Shown here in pieces: positions 26,868-52,297 of a stretch of DNA of 64,000 nt. The stretch comes from an uncultured Chryseobacterium sp. (GTDB taxonomy: Bacteria; Bacteroidota; Bacteroidia; Flavobacteriales_F; PHOS-HE28). The translations under genes and the position numbers were made by a program. The stretch lies in contig CAZYPC010000001.1 of NCBI GenBank assembly GCA_964649165.1, positions 31,529-95,528 on the forward strand. Reading direction: 5' to 3'. Positions within the stretch are counted from its first letter, which is position 1. Each line of letters starts with the position of its first letter. Below the pieces are notes generated by a model, which saw nothing but the letters and a program-made list of their open reading frames with translations, was not told the DNA's origin and did not search any database.

Positions 26868-27281
26868 TCAAGGCAAACGCACGCCCTGCTGCACCAGCTG
26901 TCCGCGCAGCACCTTCGATCGCTGCACCAGCTTGGAGGTCTCGATCGCGCTCTGCTCGAAGGGCGGCGCTGATTTTTTAAGCCTCTTGCGCTGCCGCTTC
27001 ATCTCCTTGTCGAGTCCTTTCACATCGTCGCGGATGCGGCCCAGTGCGGCCTTGCGGTCCTGCCCGGCCTTCGCGATGGCATCGATGCCGGTGGCGGTCG
27101 TTTCCAGCGCATCGCGGTAAGCCCGCAGGGTATCCCGGTACGCGTCCATATCGAACCGCATCGCTGTGAACGCCTTCGTTCGGTCCGACATGCGGAGATA
27201 AGTGCTGTCACCGATGACGGCTTGCGCGCGAGCGGCCAAACCGAGGAGGGGAACACAGAACAGGATGATCAGGCGCGACAT
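26868..27281 (-). CDS. Secreted coiled-coil hypothetical protein
   Basis: Start reset to MSRLIILFCVPLLGLAARAQA (signal peptide). The rest is helical and charged. Confidence 0.5.
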   Translation of the reverse strand: MSRLIILFCVPLLGLAARAQAVIGDSTYLRMSDRTKAFTAMRFDMDAYRDTLRAYRDALETTATGIDAIAKAGQDRKAALGRIRDDVKGLDKEMKRQRKRLKKSAPPFEQSAIETSKLVQRSKVLRGQLVQQGVRLP

Positions 27282-42614: not shown

Positions 42615-44525
42615 ATGCGACTTTCCACCATCTTCCTTGCCCTGCTGCCGCTGTCCGTTCTGGCGCAGGTCCCGCAGGCCTTCGAGTTCCAGGGTGCCGC
42701 ACGTGACCTCAGCGGCAACCTGCTCGTGTCCCAGGCCATCTCCCTGCGACTGGGTATTGTTTCCGGCACCAGCGGCGGGCCGCTGCTCTACCAGGAGACA
42801 CAGGCCACCACCACCAGCGCCCTGGGCCTCTTCACCGTGCAGGTGGGCAACGGCACGCCCGTGCTCGGCACCTTCGCCGCCATCGCCTGGAGCACCGGGC
42901 CCCGCTTCCTGAAGGTGGAGATGGACCCCGCCGCCGGGACCAGCTACCAGCACATGGGTACCACACAGCTCCTGAGCGTGCCCTACGCTCTTGAGGCCGG
43001 TAGCACGCCCTGCTTCACCGCCTCCGCCACGGGTGATACGCTCCGGCAGGGCAACGGCTGTTATCTGATCATCCCCGGTCTCAGCGCCGCCAACCCCACT
43101 TGCACTGACGCCGATGGCGATGGCTTCTTCAGTCTTGCCGGTTGCGGTACGGCCGTGGATTGCGACGATTCGAACCCGGCCATCAAGCCCGGCGCGACGG
43201 AGCTGTGCGACGGTATCGACAACAACTGCAGCGGTGCCGTGGATGAGGGCAACCCCGGTGGTGGCGCGGCGTGTACCACCGGCCAGGCCGGCGTATGCGC
43301 GAACGGGATACAGCAATGCGTGGGCGGTGCGCTCACATGCGTCCCCAGCCAAAGCCCTTCTACAGAAGTCTGCGACGGGCTCGACAACAACTGCAACGGT
43401 GCCGTCGACGAGGGCAACCCAGGGGGCGGTTTGTCGTGCAACACCGGCCAAGCAGGTGTGTGCTCGGCGGGCACTACCCAGTGCCAGAGCGGGGTCATCG
43501 TGTGCGTCGCCAACGTGAACCCCTCCGCTGAGGTCTGCGACGGGCTCGACAACAACTGCAACGGTGCGGTAGACGAGGGCAATCCCGGCGGGGGCGTCCC
43601 TTGCACCACCGGACAACTCGGGGTATGCTCGGCGGGCACCACCCAGTGCCAAAGCGGAGCCATCGTGTGCGTTCGCAACGTTAACCCCTCCGCAGAGATC
43701 TGCGACGGGCTCGACAACAACTGCAGTGGTGCGGTGGACGAAGGCAACCCGGGTGGCGGCATCGCCTGCAACACCGGACTGCTCGGCGTTTGCTCCACCG
43801 GCACCACCGCGTGCAGCGGTGGCGCGATCATCTGTGTGCAGAACGTATCAGCTACGGCCGAAGTGTGCGATGGGCTGGACAACAACTGTAATGGTGCCGT
43901 CGACGATGGTGCCGCCTCCGCATGCAATGACGGTCTCACCTGCACCACGGATGCATGCAGTTCGGGCACATGTACCAATACCGTGCAGGCGGGTTTCTGC
44001 CGTATCAGCGGTGTGTGCTACGCCAACGGCACCTTGCGACCCGGCTTCCCCTGCCAGGTGTGCAATTCATCGGTGAGCAACTCCGCCTGGAGCAACGTGA
44101 CCAGCGGGACCGTATGCGCCGCAGCAAGCTGCTCAGGAGGTGTCTTCACCGCGGCGAGCGTATGCAATGGTGCGGGGTCTTGCGTAGCCGGCTCCACGAC
44201 CAATTGCTCCCCGTACACCTGTAACACCGGTGGCACCGCCTGCCTTACCAGCTGCACCACCAGCAGCCAATGCGCATCAGGCTTCTACTGCAACGGCAGC
44301 ACCTGTGTGGCGTTGAAGGCCGCCGGATCACCTTGTGCCTTGAGCGGCGAATGTGCGAGCGGTTTCTGCGTGGATGGTGTGTGTTGCAGCACCAGTTGCA
44401 CCAGTACCTGCAAGCGTTGCAACATCGCCGGCTCGTTGGGCACCTGCTCGAATATCCCGGCTGGCACCGACCCTGACAATGAATGCACCGGCAACTGCAA
44501 TGGGGCCGGCGCTTGCGGGCCATAG
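42615..44525 (+). CDS. Secreted Cys-rich repeat protein (MopE-like 'putative metal-binding motif' repeats)
   Basis: Signal peptide MRLSTIFLALLPLSVLAQ. Five tandem (E)xCDG(L/I)DNNC(N/S)GAVD(E/D)G units, followed by a further Cys-rich tail. Confidence 0.7.
   Translation: MRLSTIFLALLPLSVLAQVPQAFEFQGAARDLSGNLLVSQAISLRLGIVSGTSGGPLLYQETQATTTSALGLFTVQVGNGTPVLGTFAAIAWSTGPRFLKVEMDPAAGTSYQHMGTTQLLSVPYALEAGSTPCFTASATGDTLRQGNGCYLIIPGLSAANPTCTDADGDGFFSLAGCGTAVDCDDSNPAIKPGATELCDGIDNNCSGAVDEGNPGGGAACTTGQAGVCANGIQQCVGGALTCVPSQSPSTEVCDGLDNNCNGAVDEGNPGGGLSCNTGQAGVCSAGTTQCQSGVIVCVANVNPSAEVCDGLDNNCNGAVDEGNPGGGVPCTTGQLGVCSAGTTQCQSGAIVCVRNVNPSAEICDGLDNNCSGAVDEGNPGGGIACNTGLLGVCSTGTTACSGGAIICVQNVSATAEVCDGLDNNCNGAVDDGAASACNDGLTCTTDACSSGTCTNTVQAGFCRISGVCYANGTLRPGFPCQVCNSSVSNSAWSNVTSGTVCAAASCSGGVFTAASVCNGAGSCVAGSTTNCSPYTCNTGGTACLTSCTTSSQCASGFYCNGSTCVALKAAGSPCALSGECASGFCVDGVCCSTSCTSTCKRCNIAGSLGTCSNIPAGTDPDNECTGNCNGAGACGP
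43200..43925 (+). repeat. In-frame 165-bp tandem repeat (4 full + 1 partial copies) inside the MopE-like gene
   Basis: Repeat-initial Glu codons fall at 43200, 43365, 43530, 43695 and 43860, an exact 165-nt period. The core TGCGACGGGCTCGACAACAACTGC is nearly identical in every copy. Confidence 0.9.
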
Positions 44526-45550: not shown

Positions 45551-45630
45551 GGAGCAAAGGTGATGCGCTCCGCTAGCGCGGACATTGCACAGGACCGGGC
45601 AAGACTTGCAGACTTCCGTGCTCTTCTGCA

Positions 45631-45759
45631 CTAGTGCATGGCCGCAAAGGACAAGGCCAGCACCAGGAACAGCAGGCCGATGGCCCAGGCCGCGAGCAGG
45701 AGCGGATGCTTGCGCTCGAAAACGAAGTGGTCAGGGCAGTGGTAAGGGTCGGTGCGCAT
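45631..45759 (-). CDS. Candidate 42-aa single-TM micro-protein
   Basis: Hand-translated (below the ORF-track cutoff): MRTDPYHCPDHFVFERKHPLLLAAWAIGLLFLVLALSFAAMH. GC3 is high, and it lies about 80 nt upstream of the T9SS cargo gene. Confidence 0.3.
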   Translation of the reverse strand: MRTDPYHCPDHFVFERKHPLLLAAWAIGLLFLVLALSFAAMH

Positions 45760-46243
45760 GTCGTTAGTCCAAGATGGTCGGGCCCAGCGAGGGAAGTCAA
45801 GGGTTTATTCCTGGTGGATGGTGCGTGTCGCAGATCCATCGTCGTTGGGGGGGTGTGCTCCCGACAAACCCCAGCGGTGCGCAGAACATGCCCCGGACCG
45901 GAACGCGGAAATGAAGTCCGTTCGTTTGGCAAAACCGCAACAGTCGCAGCCAGGGAGGTTTCGGGCCGCCGTGGCACGCCTCATGCACCTCCCTTATCAC
46001 GCTCAGCATAGTTGAAGGAGAGGTCCTCCAGATGAGCTGAGCCAGACAGGCAGGAACCGGGTTCCTGCCTGTCGACTTTGGGGGACCTCTTGAACCTCGT
46101 GGTCCTCAGGTGAACGTCACATGCGCACAGAGAGGGTCCACCTGCTCAGTGCGGTACGCCGTTCGCGCAGTGGGATGTACGTCCAGTTGACGGGCGGTTC
46201 ACCTTCGTCACATCCGAACCCATCGAACAAACCCGTCCCTATC

Positions 46244-46381
46244 ATGCGTTATCTCCTTGTGAAACGATTCGCCTTCCTGCTGACCCTGGTGATGATCATG
46301 GCCTCCTGTGCCAGTAACAACGGCATGGTGCGCAAGTGCAACGGTAAACGCGGAGAGCGCGTGCCGATGGGGGTGTTGTGA
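46244..46381 (+). CDS. Tiny lipoprotein (45-aa precursor, 24-aa mature)
   Basis: ATG at 46244 gives MRYLLVKRFAFLLTLVMIMASC (lipoprotein leader) followed by ASNNGMVRKCNGKRGERVPMGVL. The last 17 codons are re-copied in the tandem repeat downstream. Confidence 0.5.
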   Translation: MRYLLVKRFAFLLTLVMIMASCASNNGMVRKCNGKRGERVPMGVL

Positions 46382-46735
46382 ACGACATCCTCCAGCCTCC
46401 ACTCACTCGCACCGCTGTTGCCCCGCGCGCTGGAGTGAGTGTCGGCTTGGTGCGCAAGTGCAACGGTAAACGCGGAGAGCGCGTGCCGATGGGGGTGTTG
46501 TGAACGACATCCTCCAGCCTCCACTCACTCGCACCGCTGTTGCCCCGCGCGCTGGAGTGAGTGTCGGCTTGGTGCGCAAGTGCAACGGCAAACGTGGTGA
46601 GCGCGTGCCGACGGGGGTGCTGTGAGCGGCATCCTCCTGTCTTCGGAGGGCTTGGGAACGCTTCCAGATGGAGGTCGTAGCGCCGTCACTGACCCGCCCC
46701 GCTGCCGGCCCGCGCGCTGGAGTGAGTATCGACAT
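46327..46735 (+). repeat. 122-bp tandem repeat x3 (copies 1 and 2 identical, copy 3 diverged and longer)
   Basis: Copies start at 46327, 46449 and 46571. Each unit holds the last 17 codons plus stop of the lipoprotein gene and a downstream hairpin (CACTCACTC ... GAGTGAGTG). Confidence 0.9.
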
Positions 46736-46736
46736 G

Positions 46737-49700
46737 CTAGTCCTTCACGCGCACCACGCGCGTGCTGTAGCGCTCGGTGCCGGTCGCGGCGATGACCATG
46801 AGCGGGCCGGACGAGTTGTTGAACAAGCGCGACGGCAGTTTCAACTCCTGGACCACTGTGAGGATCGGTGGGCAGACAGAACGGCCCAGCGCATCCAGCA
46901 CGGTGAGCCGCCATGTGCCCTTATGCGGTAGCTCCAATCGCAGGTCTCCCGTGAAGGGGTTCGGGTAAGCACCGAGTGATAAAGGCTGGTCGTCGTGCGC
47001 ATCCTGCACCGGCATGGGTATCTGCGCGCAGTTGAGACCGGGCTTCGAAATGAAGCCATCCCACATTTCATCCTCTGCGGTGAAGAGGGAATCGCCCCAG
47101 TAGGAGACGCCGTAGGTGCTCCGTATCTCTCCCAAGAGCATGATCGTGCCCTCGGGATCGCGGAAAATGGGCGTGCGATAGCTCGTGACATTGCCGTACG
47201 CGTTGGGCAGGGTGGTCCAGGGGACATAGACGTGTTGCAATGCACCCTCCCTGTTGTAGACGGTCATGAACAGGTCCCCGCCACTGGCGGCACACCAGAG
47301 CGGTGGTGTGCTGATGGAGCTGATGTAGCCATTGGCTCCCCCTCCGCCGAACTGGCTTACTGCCGTGAGCTGGTCGCCGGTGAGGTCGAGCCCGGTGGTC
47401 CAGCTGTTGCAGTTGAAGAGCGCGCCGTTGCCCCAGGCCAGGTGTCCGCTCGCATCCAGCTTGGCCACGAAGAATCCGCAGTAGCCGGTCATCTCTGCCA
47501 CGCTCCCATCCGAATGATGCAGCTCGCTCACCTGCGTGGTGTAATAGTGGTCGTTGTTGCCGGTGATGAACAGGTCGCCGTTCTCCGCTGTGGCCACGGC
47601 CACCACCTGGCTGCCGAAATCGTTATCGATCGCGTACAGGCACCATTGGAATTGTCCGTCGGCGTCGTAGCGCGCAGCGTACATATGCCCTCCATAATCG
47701 GGTTCCGTGGGTTCTGCGAGGTAGCTGGGGCCATCATTCGCTGAATAGAAGGTGGCACCGTATTCCAGATCGCCACCCAGGCTGATGGTGCCGTCCGCAT
47801 CCACATCCATGTCCCAACATTTCACCGGATTCGAGTAGTCGCTCGCGATGTACGTCTGCCAGATCGGGACTCCGATCGGCGATGTCCGCAGCAGGAACGT
47901 GCCGTGATCCACGGCCTCGGTGTTGAAGAAATACTCGACGCCTTCATACCAGTACCGGCCGATGTTGACGAGGCTGCCCATGACGTACACATTGTCCAGG
48001 CTATCCACGTCGATCACGGAGGTGCTCGCCTGGTAGAAACACGAATGCCATTGGTGCCGACCACGAGCATCAAGGCACATGAGGTAGCCATTGCCATACT
48101 CGAAGTAGGGCAGCGTGTCCCCGGCATTGTCGAGGAAGCGGTTCACGACGTCGGTGCCGGAAATGAGAACGTTGCCGTTGGACTGAGAGCTGATCGCGGC
48201 GATTGTCGAAACCGGCTCACCGAGCGTTTCCACCCACCAACGCAACACGCCGGAGTAAGTGTACTTCGCCATGAAGTCGCTCGACCCCGACGCGAGCAGC
48301 ACGGTTCGGCCCTGCCTGCTCGGCAGCAGGATGTTCTCCACGGATTTTCCGCTCACCAGGAACCCATCCCCGGTATCGTGGCCGTCCGTGATGCAGGCCC
48401 GGCCACTGCCGTTCCAGAGCGGGTCGTTGCCGACCATCATCATGGTCCAGCAGCTGTCCTGCGCGCCTTCCTCGAAAATGAAAGGACCTTCACTGGTCAG
48501 CGTGTCGTAGCAGCCGGCGTCGCTCCAGCAGATGAGCGTGACCTCCGTAGGTCCGGGTGAACCATAGCTGATGCCTTCCGGATCCTGGAGTCCGGAGCCC
48601 GGAGGTTCGGCGGTGGGCCCGAAGTCCCAAACGAAATGCTGCGCATCGTCGCAATGCGCGTAGAAACCCACGCCCTCTCCCACCAAGGCGTTCACGAGAT
48701 CGCTGTGCAGCCGGGCCCGCGTTTCTTCCACACGGATGTGGATGGTATCCGGCAAGGTGCGCGTGCAATTGGCGTAGATGTTCCTGGCCTCGATCACCAG
48801 GTCCGCGGTGCCTTCGATGACAGCGGTGTTCAACTGGAGCGCTCCGCCGTTGCCGGTCGCACTGGCGAGGTCCTCCTCATGGGTGATGTCGCGGCAGGTG
48901 TATGTCACATCGGTCTGCGTGCCCGCGATGGTGATGGTGGTCGTGCCCTGCTTGCACAGGATGCTATCAGATACGGCAACAGCAAGGTCCACCAACGGAG
49001 GGTCCACGATGTGGATCTGCAGATGGGCCGTGTCGCTGTATATGCCATTGCTCACGGTGAACATGAGCTGATGCACGCCGACATCATCGATCACCAAGGA
49101 GAAGTTGCCCGAGCAGGACCCGGCGACGGGCTCGCCATCCAACTGCCAGCTGCAGGAGTTATCGGACCAGCTGGACGTGCCACTGGCCAGGGTGGACTCG
49201 CCCACGCAACCGCCTTGGGACAGGATACCACAGAACGGCATGCTGTTCCCGCCACCATCAGCGGTGTACAACACCCGTCCGTTCTCACCCACGGCGTAGC
49301 CTTCAACAAAGTCGACGTCGAACTGGATGTCATCGATAGCGCCGGTGCCCGCACTGGGTTGCCATTCCAGTATCCCGGGGTTCGAGCCGCCCTTGTACAT
49401 CCCGTGTCCCGTGGCCACCCAGCAGCTGTTAACGCTCATCACGATGTCACGACCGTCCAGCGGATAAGGCTCGAACGAGGTGAGGTCCGTGGGCGATGCG
49501 CTGGAAGAGAACCGGTAAACGGCTCCACCTACGCCATACTGCTGCGTGGACGATCGTGCCCTGATCCCCCGGAAGGTGCGGCCGGGCGAAAGATGTGGGG
49601 TGAGGGTGAGCCCAGAGGTCTGGTCGCTGCAGAACACATACACGCCATCGCCGCCGATGAGGAAGGTGCCACTCAAGGAGTTCAAGCTGAGAAGGGGCAT

Positions 49701-50210
49701 GTCGAGTCCGCTTGCCACCTCGGTGAAGGATGCCAGGTCCGTGCTGCGGAGCACCAGACCATGGTCCCCCACCGCATGGATGCGGCTCTCGGCCGAATTC
49801 ACCGAAATGGCGTTCAGTGCGGACGGTGTGGGCCCCACGTGCAGGAAGGCATACGACTGGTCACTGATGTTCACCTTCAGGATGATCGCCCGCTGGTCCA
49901 CCGTGTCCGTGCCGGCGAAATAGGCGATGTCCTGCTCCGCCTCGCGTGCCGTAACCCCCGAGAAGCTCGTGTGATCGTACTGCGCATCATCCGCTGACGA
50001 ACCGGTGATCTCGAAGCGCGTCCAGGCATCCGTGCCAACCCCTGCGGTGGTGCTGAAGTAGATGCCATGCTCTCCACATACCACCACGTGCGTATCCCAC
50101 CAAAACACGCCCGTCAGATCATCGTCGATGCCCGAGGCGAGGTCCGTCCATTGGGCATGAGCTGGGCGCAGCAGGCCGAGTAATGCAAGTAGAAAGAACG
50201 GGCGCATCAT
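46737..50210 (-). CDS. Large T9SS cargo protein (propeller-like and PKD-like modules)
   Basis: Start reset to MMRPFFLLALLGLLRPAHAQ (ATGs at 50210 and 50207). CTD LSLGAYPNPFTGDLRLELPHKGTWRLTVLDALGRSV...RVVRVKD. ATGA-type overlap with the upstream gene's stop. Confidence 0.75.
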   Translation of the reverse strand: MMRPFFLLALLGLLRPAHAQWTDLASGIDDDLTGVFWWDTHVVVCGEHGIYFSTTAGVGTDAWTRFEITGSSADDAQYDHTSFSGVTAREAEQDIAYFAGTDTVDQRAIILKVNISDQSYAFLHVGPTPSALNAISVNSAESRIHAVGDHGLVLRSTDLASFTEVASGLDMPLLSLNSLSGTFLIGGDGVYVFCSDQTSGLTLTPHLSPGRTFRGIRARSSTQQYGVGGAVYRFSSSASPTDLTSFEPYPLDGRDIVMSVNSCWVATGHGMYKGGSNPGILEWQPSAGTGAIDDIQFDVDFVEGYAVGENGRVLYTADGGGNSMPFCGILSQGGCVGESTLASGTSSWSDNSCSWQLDGEPVAGSCSGNFSLVIDDVGVHQLMFTVSNGIYSDTAHLQIHIVDPPLVDLAVAVSDSILCKQGTTTITIAGTQTDVTYTCRDITHEEDLASATGNGGALQLNTAVIEGTADLVIEARNIYANCTRTLPDTIHIRVEETRARLHSDLVNALVGEGVGFYAHCDDAQHFVWDFGPTAEPPGSGLQDPEGISYGSPGPTEVTLICWSDAGCYDTLTSEGPFIFEEGAQDSCWTMMMVGNDPLWNGSGRACITDGHDTGDGFLVSGKSVENILLPSRQGRTVLLASGSSDFMAKYTYSGVLRWWVETLGEPVSTIAAISSQSNGNVLISGTDVVNRFLDNAGDTLPYFEYGNGYLMCLDARGRHQWHSCFYQASTSVIDVDSLDNVYVMGSLVNIGRYWYEGVEYFFNTEAVDHGTFLLRTSPIGVPIWQTYIASDYSNPVKCWDMDVDADGTISLGGDLEYGATFYSANDGPSYLAEPTEPDYGGHMYAARYDADGQFQWCLYAIDNDFGSQVVAVATAENGDLFITGNNDHYYTTQVSELHHSDGSVAEMTGYCGFFVAKLDASGHLAWGNGALFNCNSWTTGLDLTGDQLTAVSQFGGGGANGYISSISTPPLWCAASGGDLFMTVYNREGALQHVYVPWTTLPNAYGNVTSYRTPIFRDPEGTIMLLGEIRSTYGVSYWGDSLFTAEDEMWDGFISKPGLNCAQIPMPVQDAHDDQPLSLGAYPNPFTGDLRLELPHKGTWRLTVLDALGRSVCPPILTVVQELKLPSRLFNNSSGPLMVIAATGTERYSTRVVRVKD

Positions 50211-52297
50211 GGACGGTCCTGGATGATGAAGCGGAAGGTCCGGGCGGACATGCCCTGACTTGAAATGCTCAAGGTGTAAGGGCCGGGCGAGAGCGCACTG
50301 ATATCCATCGGGAACGCGGCGCGGCTGACCCGATGCAGGCAGGTGCGTCCCAAGGCATCTCTGACGATGACCTCTTCTTCGCCCTCGCGCGGCGTGGCCG
50401 ACAGGAGGAACAAGTGATCGCGCGCGGGCACGGGATACAGGGCCCATCCATCAATGCCTTGTTCCAGCATGCCGACGTAGACACTCATCGTCGCGCTGGT
50501 CCATATGCATCCGAAGCTGTCCGTGTAGGTCACTGCATAGCTGCCATCAGTCGCTGGCACGAAGGCGTTGCTGTCCGCGCCTACGATCGCAGCGCCATCA
50601 AGCGACCATTGATAATCGGTGTAGTCCGGAGAAACGCTCAGCACACCGCCGAGGAACGTCGGCACCTCCAGCGCCGGTATGCTCACCTGGAACGTGATGG
50701 TATCGATGCCGAAGTCGTTCGATACGATCAGCATGACCTGGTAGTCTCCGGTCGACGGAAAGCTGTGTGCGGGGTCCGCGCTGGTGTCCGCTGGACTGCC
50801 GTCATCGAAGTCCCAGAAATAGGTACCGGGTCGCACGCTCAGATCCTCGAACTGCACCGTGAGGTCCTGCGGGCAGTCGTGCGCGAACCAGGCGATGGGC
50901 GGCAGGTCCGCGTGGTTGAACTCATCCGCCCCGATATCCGGATACTCTGCATCACGCAGGTCGCCATCGATGTCGTCGACGGCCAGAGGCATGGGCACGG
51001 CCCCGAACTGGATGAGCGGATGCGCGGCGTGCAGGTCGTTCGCGTTATCCACGAAGTGGGGATCCACGCTCACGGAGGATGCCTCGAGCCCGGTGGCGTT
51101 CCGAAAGGTGTCCAGATCCGTGTACCAATCCCACGTGCTGTGTATCACCGCGAAGCCACCATCGCTGCGGTGGATGTCGTTGTGGTCGCTCGTAAGTCCC
51201 TGCGTATTGTAGTCCGTGTACAATACCACCGACGTATCGCTGTGCAGGATGTTGTTGCGCAGCACGATGGAGTTGACCTCGTTCAGCGCGACCGCACCGA
51301 AGAGCGAATTGTCGAAGACCCATACGTTCTCGGACTCCCGGAGGTAGACGCCCTCGAACGCCGTTGTGTGGAAGGTCCCGTTCTCGTTGGACATGGAGAC
51401 GTTCCGCGTGTATCCGCCGGAGATCATGTTGTTGTAGATCTGGACCGGCAGTGCGCTGTAGCCGATGGCGCGGTACGTTTCGATGCCGTGGTCGTACAGG
51501 CCGTACATCGTGTTGTGGTGCACGTAGGTGCGGTATATCTCCTCCTCCCATCCGTCCAAGTAGACGCCGATGCCGCTGTTCGTGATCCGGTTGTATCCGA
51601 TATCCAACGAATCGCCATAGATGATGCCCTGGATCCGGATCGCGACCTCGCAGGAATCGAAGCTGTTGTTCCAGATGATGTTGGGGCCCACATGGCGGTT
51701 CGACCCGCTACCGCCGAGTTCGATCGACGAGTAGACCATGGCGTTCTCCAGGTCGCGGAACTGGTTGTGGGTGAACGTGTGCGAATCGCCCTTGGCGACG
51801 GAAATGCCGTTGTGGAACCCGTCCGCCGGCAGGCCCTGGACGATGCAATGGTCGAACGTGATGCGATGACTGAAGGTGACCTCCAAACCCTTGTAGAGCC
51901 AACCGCTGCTCCCGCCCACCCGGGGGTAGATGGTCAGGTATTGAAAGGTGAGGTCGCTGCACTCATAGACCCCACTGAGCGTGGTGATCACGTCCTCGGC
52001 CTGTTCCGTTTCCGACTTGATCAGCACCGGATAGTACGGGGTGAGACCGCTGATGTAGACGGCGAGGTCGGTCGAATAGTCTCCGGGGCGGAGCAGGAAG
52101 GTCACTGGCGCGTTGCAACCGATGAGGTCCAGCGAGGTGATCGCCGCATCCAACGTCGGGTAGTCGGGCGCTGTGCCGCCCACCGTGTAACTCCCGTGCA
52201 ACTGCGCTTCGACTTCGGGACAGAAGCCGAGCGCCACCAGCACAAGCAGCAGTGTTGTCCGGGTCGACCGACGGGATGCGTTGGCCGGGATCTCCAT
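50207..52297 (-). CDS. Right-handed parallel beta-helix + PKD T9SS cargo protein
   Basis: Start reset to MEIPANASRRSTRTTLLLVLVALGFCPEVEAQ. Repeated beta-helix turns (NNSF..., NNMISGG..., NNILHSD...). PKD block YFWDFDDGSPADTSADPAHSFPSTGDYQVMLIVSN. CTD GWALYPVPARDHLFLL...GPYTLSISSQGMSARTFRFIIQD. Confidence 0.8.
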   Translation of the reverse strand: MEIPANASRRSTRTTLLLVLVALGFCPEVEAQLHGSYTVGGTAPDYPTLDAAITSLDLIGCNAPVTFLLRPGDYSTDLAVYISGLTPYYPVLIKSETEQAEDVITTLSGVYECSDLTFQYLTIYPRVGGSSGWLYKGLEVTFSHRITFDHCIVQGLPADGFHNGISVAKGDSHTFTHNQFRDLENAMVYSSIELGGSGSNRHVGPNIIWNNSFDSCEVAIRIQGIIYGDSLDIGYNRITNSGIGVYLDGWEEEIYRTYVHHNTMYGLYDHGIETYRAIGYSALPVQIYNNMISGGYTRNVSMSNENGTFHTTAFEGVYLRESENVWVFDNSLFGAVALNEVNSIVLRNNILHSDTSVVLYTDYNTQGLTSDHNDIHRSDGGFAVIHSTWDWYTDLDTFRNATGLEASSVSVDPHFVDNANDLHAAHPLIQFGAVPMPLAVDDIDGDLRDAEYPDIGADEFNHADLPPIAWFAHDCPQDLTVQFEDLSVRPGTYFWDFDDGSPADTSADPAHSFPSTGDYQVMLIVSNDFGIDTITFQVSIPALEVPTFLGGVLSVSPDYTDYQWSLDGAAIVGADSNAFVPATDGSYAVTYTDSFGCIWTSATMSVYVGMLEQGIDGWALYPVPARDHLFLLSATPREGEEEVIVRDALGRTCLHRVSRAAFPMDISALSPGPYTLSISSQGMSARTFRFIIQDRP

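Follow-up and report, generated by a model that had tools for sequence, protein, structure and literature searches.

A tandem array of mini-lipoprotein gene 3' ends and stem-loops in an uncultured member of the Flavobacteriales: anatomy, unit number and relics in related lineages

The locus and its mini-lipoprotein gene

The DNA analyzed here (the window, 64,000 nucleotides) carries a small plus-strand gene whose 3' end is repeated head to tail up to the end of a convergent gene. The copies form one array at 46321-46637, for which TRF gives a period of 122, 2.6 copies and 95% matches. The features of the locus are as follows.

46244-46381, plus strand: mini-lipoprotein gene, 45 aa, product MRYLLVKRFAFLLTLVMIMASC followed by ASNNGMVRKCNGKRGERVPMGVL (homologues and alignment A1)
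46326-46344, 46448-46466 and 46570-46588, plus strand: 19-nt run TGGTGCGCAAGTGCAACGG, identical at the start of all three units
46327-46448, plus strand: unit c1, consisting of the gene's last 17 codons and stop (46328-46381) and a 67-nt tail with an intact hairpin
46378-46503, plus strand: ORF2, 41 aa, with a GTG that overlaps the TGA stop; judged a by-product of the duplication
46392-46450, plus strand: hairpin B of c1, core CACTCACTC (46400-46408) with GAGTGAGTG (46433-46441), outer part 46392-46397 with 46444-46450
46449-46570, plus strand: unit c2, identical to c1 throughout; its own intact hairpin, the second of the array, is at 46514-46572
46500-46625, plus strand: ORF3, the equivalent of ORF2, likewise judged a by-product of the duplication
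46571-46736, plus strand: unit c3, diverged, ~165 nt, with a coding-like part (46572-46625, VRKCNGKRGERVPTGVL and a stop), an insertion and a degenerate hairpin tail
46737-50447, minus strand: convergent gene for a large secreted protein, likely start 50210 (1157 aa), its stop adjoining the end of c3

A preliminary description of the region had reported a repeat with identical first and second copies, which is borne out by TRF and by the 100% identity of c1 and c2. The five changes that it listed for the third copy are all exact: GGT>GGC, CGC>CGT, GGA>GGT and TTG>CTG are synonymous, and ATG>ACG replaces Met by Thr. Also as described, a TAA lies in frame at 46345, and the GTG codons at 46378 and 46500 overlap the TGA stop (GTGA). 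The codon phase of the repeat starts at 46328, position 46327 being the last G of the preceding ATG or TTG, and the sequences at the unit boundaries are CGGCATG, CGGCTTG and CGACATG. The c1-c1 junction has the sequence GAGTGTCGGCTTGGTGCGCAAGTGCAACGGT, and the c1-c3 junction reads ...AACGGC. Against the repeat unit, the first 67 nt of c3 match at 90%; matching resumes at 84% past ~43 extra nt, an insertion at roughly 46638-46680 that has no other occurrence in the genome. Aligned globally, the c3 and c1 tails give 53 matches, 14 mismatches (14/67, 21%) and a 43/44-nt indel. The end of c3 is thus at 46736, and the stop codon of the convergent gene is reached 1 nt further on. The repeat unit was found at a single locus of the 4.98-Mb, 268-contig MAG; a dispersed repeat or mobile element was rejected because of this confinement and the uniqueness of the c3 insertion.

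As a separate observation, the convergent protein (46737-50447, minus strand; 1157-1236 aa) is without a Pfam domain, and its C-terminal ~80 residues resemble, by eye, a type-9-secretion sorting domain.

The gene that the array extends is called publicly as an 86-aa frame from 46121 (46121-46381). This call is over-extended, and 46244 is the true start, because the homologues begin at the signal-peptide Met (46244) and the upstream extension is unconserved. The lipobox reads L/M-A-S-C, with its Cys (codon 46307-46309) invariant in 19/19 family members, and the 45-aa product is a predicted bacterial lipoprotein, that is, a signal peptidase II substrate. Searches against Pfam and NCBIfam returned no match above noise. 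Homologues are present in 43 of the 131 species of the window's genus and in a few other families of the class, near relatives in metagenomes have 93-57% identity, and the named relatives, in a search with the 86-aa version, are uncultured Flavobacteriales MAGs. Across 300 genomes sampled evenly from the phylum, the family was absent, the matches being signal-peptide noise only. Among 1.84 billion representatives, the family comprises 15 clusters of proteins that are 36-90 aa long as called and that carry a signal peptide, a lipobox Cys and the C-terminal motif, which occurs once per protein; the exception is the mis-called protein P0022 (see below). Counted from the signal-peptide Met, the members have 36-50 aa, with a mature part of ~20-24 residues.

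The family C-terminus follows the pattern RKC[ND]G..G.[RK][VT]PMG.., and in alignment A1 (19 members) C22, K31, C32, G34, G37, M42 and G43 are invariant, so that K-C-x-G-x2-G-x4-M-G, including a second conserved Cys, stands at the extreme C-terminus and the Met of PMG (M42) is found in 19/19 members. The family loci examined were the window gene (46244-46381), L006-L019, L029-L034 and L054-L085. The 45-aa gene is a member of a conserved family of mini-lipoproteins, so far without annotation, in uncultured Flavobacteriales; this family and its clade-specific conserved 3' stem-loop, described below, may outweigh the repeat itself in worth. In one species of the genus, a second, weaker motif match lies 1.5 kb downstream of the gene (G025:C17:25602-25724 and 27169-27255); in a longer alignment this match has a TAA inside and may be a dead paralogue.

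The stem-loop behind the gene

The tail of c1 folds into a stable hairpin on both strands (plus strand, -28.9 kcal/mol, z = -2.8; minus strand, -35.6 kcal/mol, z = -3.3). The related lineages in which the surroundings of the gene could be compared are listed below, with the identity of their protein to that of the window.

L032 (93%): single copy, same convergent neighbour, different hairpin
L029 (91%): hairpin B, followed by a relic that TAG interrupts in frame
L030, L033 and L034 (80%, 82% and 76%): single copy, hairpin B absent
L031 (71%): hairpin B present, second copy not detectable
L055 (62%): hairpin B (loop deletion), followed by a relic that has lost 1 nt, at which the contig ends
L054: hairpin B, then an intact second copy

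Hairpin B thus recurs in L029, L031, L054 and L055, with 91.8% of the cells paired and 3 pairs changed on both sides, and it accompanies the lipoprotein gene into different neighbourhoods. Its conservation score was reached by only 8 of 500 shuffles, and slid controls collapse. The statement of the preliminary description that every unit carries a hairpin is correct for c1 and c2, in which it is intact and conserved with compensatory changes, but not for c3, where the 5' arm is mutated and the tail has no stable fold, being no better than shuffles (z = +1.7). In the roughly 40 gene-bearing species of the genus and in the other family genomes, neither hairpin B nor a second copy was found.

The c1 hairpin is probably a 3'-end or terminator-type stem-loop that the gene shares with its convergent neighbour. 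It resembles intrinsic (Rho-independent) terminators in being a G+C-rich stem-loop 13-20 nt past the stop, between convergent genes and with compensatory conservation. It differs from them in that no U-rich tract lies directly behind the stem, the downstream sequence being TCGGCTTGG, and a consensus scan of 45600-47000 gave 0 terminator-like sites; a terminator role is thus putative. The repeat region has no match in Rfam, and a scan of metagenomes for the hairpin loop gave 12 hits, all of them chance matches in G+C-rich coding DNA.

Could the array as a whole be maintained for the hairpins, for example as a stack of bidirectional terminators or of stabilisers between the two convergent genes, the coding-like segments being mere passengers? 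The compensatory conservation in 4-5 lineages, the movement of the hairpin with its gene, the stability on both strands and the two intact hairpins of the three-unit form are all in keeping with such an RNA- or DNA-level function. However, the hairpin of c3 is degenerate, the closest relative, L032, has one unrelated hairpin and no repeat, and neither the missing U-tract nor the Rfam result fits, so that we regard this explanation of the array as unlikely.

The number of repeat units

These data raise the question of whether the exact copy c2 is real or was introduced during assembly. Exact-protein look-ups led to the same locus in three other assemblies of this organism, namely L026/L050 (Logan, SRR8797212, a 9.5-kb k=31 contig) and L027 and L028 (both from ENA). 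All are ~100% identical to the window, and in all of them c1 passes straight into c3, c2 being absent. If c2 were an artefact, the true locus would be c1 + c3 everywhere, as these three independent assemblies show it; moreover, the source of the window is a fragmented MAG of the short-read type (268 contigs), and exact 122-nt tandem copies are difficult for short reads. The three units of the window represent the minimum path through a loop of the short-read graph.

Simulation of the k=31 graph gives a different picture. A two-unit sequence contains no repeated 31-mer, no branch and hence no loop that could lead an assembler to insert a unit, whereas a c1-c1 junction creates an out-branch after the k-mer 46558-46588, with the right-hand unitig starting at 46559. 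Two contigs, L051 (SRR8797219) and L052 (SRR14932646, in 3 samples), stop precisely at 46559 when followed from the side of the convergent gene, and the last 31-mer of both is gagtgtcggcttggtgcgcaagtgcaacggC. These ends match the simulated branch point, which is unique to the c1-c1 junction; therefore, forms with at least three units and two-unit forms seem to coexist, even among the samples of a single study. The same branch point would also arise from a plain C/T variant at 46589, but such a variant forms a simple bubble, which assemblers usually pop, and is less likely. Exact tandem copies are also no general feature of this assembly, in which the other long-period TRF arrays are diverged, with periods mostly divisible by 3, like protein-domain repeats. 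An assembly origin of c2 consequently appears improbable to us, and the unit reads as a very recent, polymorphic extra copy.

Two further contigs end in or near the 3' arm of the hairpin (...GCTGGAGTGA...), L025 at 46438 and L053 at 46709. Neither the two-unit nor the three-unit graph predicts a branch there, and the ends could reflect a drop in coverage at the G+C-rich hairpin or a further variant. A metagenome scan for the two unit junctions gave no hit.

The preliminary description had offered a recombination or phase-variation substrate as one possible reading of the repeat. Its first half is supported by the two-unit and at least three-unit forms in different samples; phase variation is not, since the first unit and its stop codon are unchanged in every copy-number state. 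Contingency loci share the unstable repeat number with the locus studied here. In the latter, however, the repeat lies behind the stop of the live copy, and the unit number alters no frame or promoter spacing, the gene, its stop and its upstream sequence being identical in the two- and three-unit forms.

A closer comparison is with bacterial minisatellite or VNTR arrays, which form and are resized by slipped-strand mispairing or by unequal crossing-over between direct repeats. The likeness extends to the head-to-tail direct copies (period 122) with an identical newest pair, to the 19-nt run at the unit boundaries, which allows misalignment, and to a unit number that differs between samples of the same organism (at the level of assemblies and contig break points) and leaves the frame of the live gene unaffected. 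Unlike an ordinary minisatellite, the unit here is the gene's last 17 codons with the 3' hairpin, which is why dead copies mimic coding sequence, and the relics that several lineages carry at a homologous junction suggest an old array undergoing turnover. The locus can thus serve as a small, clean case of copy-number polymorphism that is readable from de Bruijn contig break points.

Second copies in other lineages and the status of the diverged unit

A second copy or relic occupies a homologous junction in four of the five hairpin-B lineages. L054 and L029 share the junction after GTGTC[AG]GC; in the window and L055 this junction is 18 nt shorter, with CGGCTG and CGGCATG on either side. The relic of L029, interrupted by TAG, reaches a local alignment score of 25 against a null maximum of 23, and that of L055 is frameshifted; two of the four second copies are thus plainly dead.

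L054 was located through an ORF2-like product that had been called as protein P0022, and it shows a tandem duplication of this kind, with a period of 140, in a second lineage. P0022 itself (L054 363-548, 61 aa) is a mis-call, which runs in the -1 frame through the end of the first gene and the hairpin into the second copy. The two copies of L054 differ at 12 of 72 sites, with 10 silent changes and 2 replacements, a pattern with P = 0.003-0.005 even if copy 1 is constrained and both branches had equal time. Taken alone, this pattern would suggest selection on the second copy; it needs either an assumption of allele replacement or turnover, or real selection. The second-copy peptide, CASSNGMVRKCNGQRGTRVAMGVL, is the exact C-terminus of an extant full-length member, P0026, and the L054 gene is of the P0030 type. 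Moreover, the lineage-specific Thr and Ala of the second copy recur in the first copy of L054 and not in the window copies; therefore, the copies have been homogenised or renewed within lineages. We argue for a fossil in L054 as well, because of the match to P0026, the sharing within the lineage and the two dead copies among the four.

In the window, the coding-like part of c3 differs from c1 at 5 of 51 positions, with 4 synonymous changes and 1 replacement. The preliminary description took this bias as a sign that the third copy is, or recently was, under coding selection. With both copies neutral, at least 4 synonymous changes out of 5 have P = 0.014-0.026, but this is the wrong null, and with c1 constrained and c3 neutral, P is 0.08-0.13; with the constraint placed on c1 alone, the 4:1 excess is therefore not significant. 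The sole replacement (Met>Thr), on the other hand, falls on the invariant M42. When the five changes were polarised with L032 as the outgroup, 2 silent changes fell to c1 and 2 silent changes plus Met>Thr to c3; this carries little weight, as the polarisation depends on such outgroups and L032 may itself have lost a copy by recombination. We conclude that c3 is best read as an older duplicate, a decaying fossil, because the invariant Met and the hairpin are lost, ~43 nt are gained and the synonymous excess is not significant. On the same grounds, present coding selection on the third copy is not supported; its derivation from a selected coding sequence is.

The main competing explanation is that the downstream copies are translated and selected, giving leaderless peptides that end in the lipoprotein's C-terminal motif (MVRKCNGKRGERVP(M/T)GVL type). 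Products of 41 aa would start at the GTG that overlaps the stop, and products of ~18 aa (MVRKCNG...) at a TTG, GTG or ATG of the unit junction. The GTGA stop-start overlap, the in-frame start codons at the beginnings of the second copies (TTG GTG in the window, ATG GTG in L054), the four synonymous changes to one replacement in the window and, above all in its P of ~0.003-0.005, the intact second copy of L054 speak for this explanation, and the in-frame starts count against the fossil reading. The reading frames themselves behave otherwise. The 24-codon linker of ORF2 and ORF3 shows 12 nucleotide differences from its L054 homologue, and since 0 of the 12 are synonymous, the linker is not evolving as a protein; its frame is stop-free in 60% of shuffles. 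Neither product has the signal peptide and lipobox found in every family member, neither ORF is called in the public gene calls of the same locus, and in the 15 clusters the motif stands once per protein, at the C-terminus of a protein with a signal peptide, except in the mis-called P0022. Together with the replaced invariant Met in c3 and the dead relics of L029 (TAG) and L055 (frameshift), this makes selected leaderless peptides a doubtful proposition, in our estimate an improbable one. ORF2 and ORF3 are accordingly not treated here as genes, in keeping with their probable origin as by-products of the duplication, and the earlier suggestion of a peptide family with a shared C-terminus is not supported, given the linker, the missing signal peptide and the openness of shuffled frames. 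Very unlikely indeed is the more far-reaching proposal that this Flavobacteriales clade keeps and translates leaderless peptides of ~18-41 aa as a cytoplasmic twin of the exported lipopeptide (a partner, decoy or regulator); were it true, copy number would set the dose, and the 10:2 pattern of L054 would be true purifying selection.

Other coding readings were tried and rejected. A -1 programmed frameshift would have to occur at G GGG GTG in the window and at ATG GGC GTC in L054; neither is a heptamer, and the site is unconserved. For a -1 frameshift or stop-start coupling, the stem is at least 16 nt away (a spacer of 5-9 nt is expected), and the linker is without coding constraint. Stop-codon read-through in the zero frame reaches another TGA inside the 3' arm of the hairpin. 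Gene conversion from silent cassettes (pilE/pilS-like) would have a single diverged copy at its disposal, whose one amino acid difference lies at an invariant site.

The explanation that we consider probable is an old tandem duplication of which the first unit alone is functional, and which continues to look young because the array turns over and its live allele is replaced. The minisatellite-like array would have arisen when the 3' part of a real mini-lipoprotein gene was copied along with the stem-loop after its stop. In this array, c1 provides the end of the gene and the conserved hairpin, and c3 would be the older duplicate in decay. The copy c2 would be a very recent re-duplication of c1, for which the 19-nt run was probably the site of slippage or unequal crossing-over; recombination across the 122 identical bases could remove it again, and such gain and easy loss would explain the coexistence of two-unit and at least three-unit forms, and c2 may be a snapshot of array renewal by unequal crossing-over. 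A fossil of this kind would look synonymously diverged since it is young, the live copy changes silently only, and turnover or allele replacement resets the comparison. If the live allele is replaced by recombination with other strains, fossil and live copy would descend from two once-selected alleles, and a second copy with the P0026 C-terminus beside a gene of the P0030 type, as in L054, is what would be expected. The main caveat to this explanation is the 10:2 silent pattern of the intact second copy in L054, and selection on downstream copies may act in some lineages. The junction types also count against it, being discordant with the gene tree (window and L055 versus L054 and L029); either the 18 nt between CGGCTG and CGGCATG would have to be deleted in parallel, or lineages would have to have recombined.

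Displaced or duplicated 3' gene ends are known from homology-facilitated illegitimate recombination and from the integration of islands in tRNA or tmRNA genes. There, as here, a functional end is followed by a second end that differs mainly at silent sites, and the two ends of L054 match two different extant alleles. The present locus differs in that no mobile element, integrase or foreign DNA lies between the copies, which are directly tandem, one unit being an exact recent duplicate. Overall, the feature is of an ordinary kind, and its mildly instructive side is a caution: a dead duplicate of a gene end may show a synonymous bias without selection, because its live counterpart changes silently only and turnover or allele replacement keeps the fossil young.

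Elsewhere in the window, a plus-strand gene at 42615-44525 encodes a 636-aa secreted protein with at least 5 repeats of a MopE-type Cys-rich metal-binding motif (PF11617, E = 2e-39), and TRF finds a 165-nt period at about 43363-43906, within this gene.
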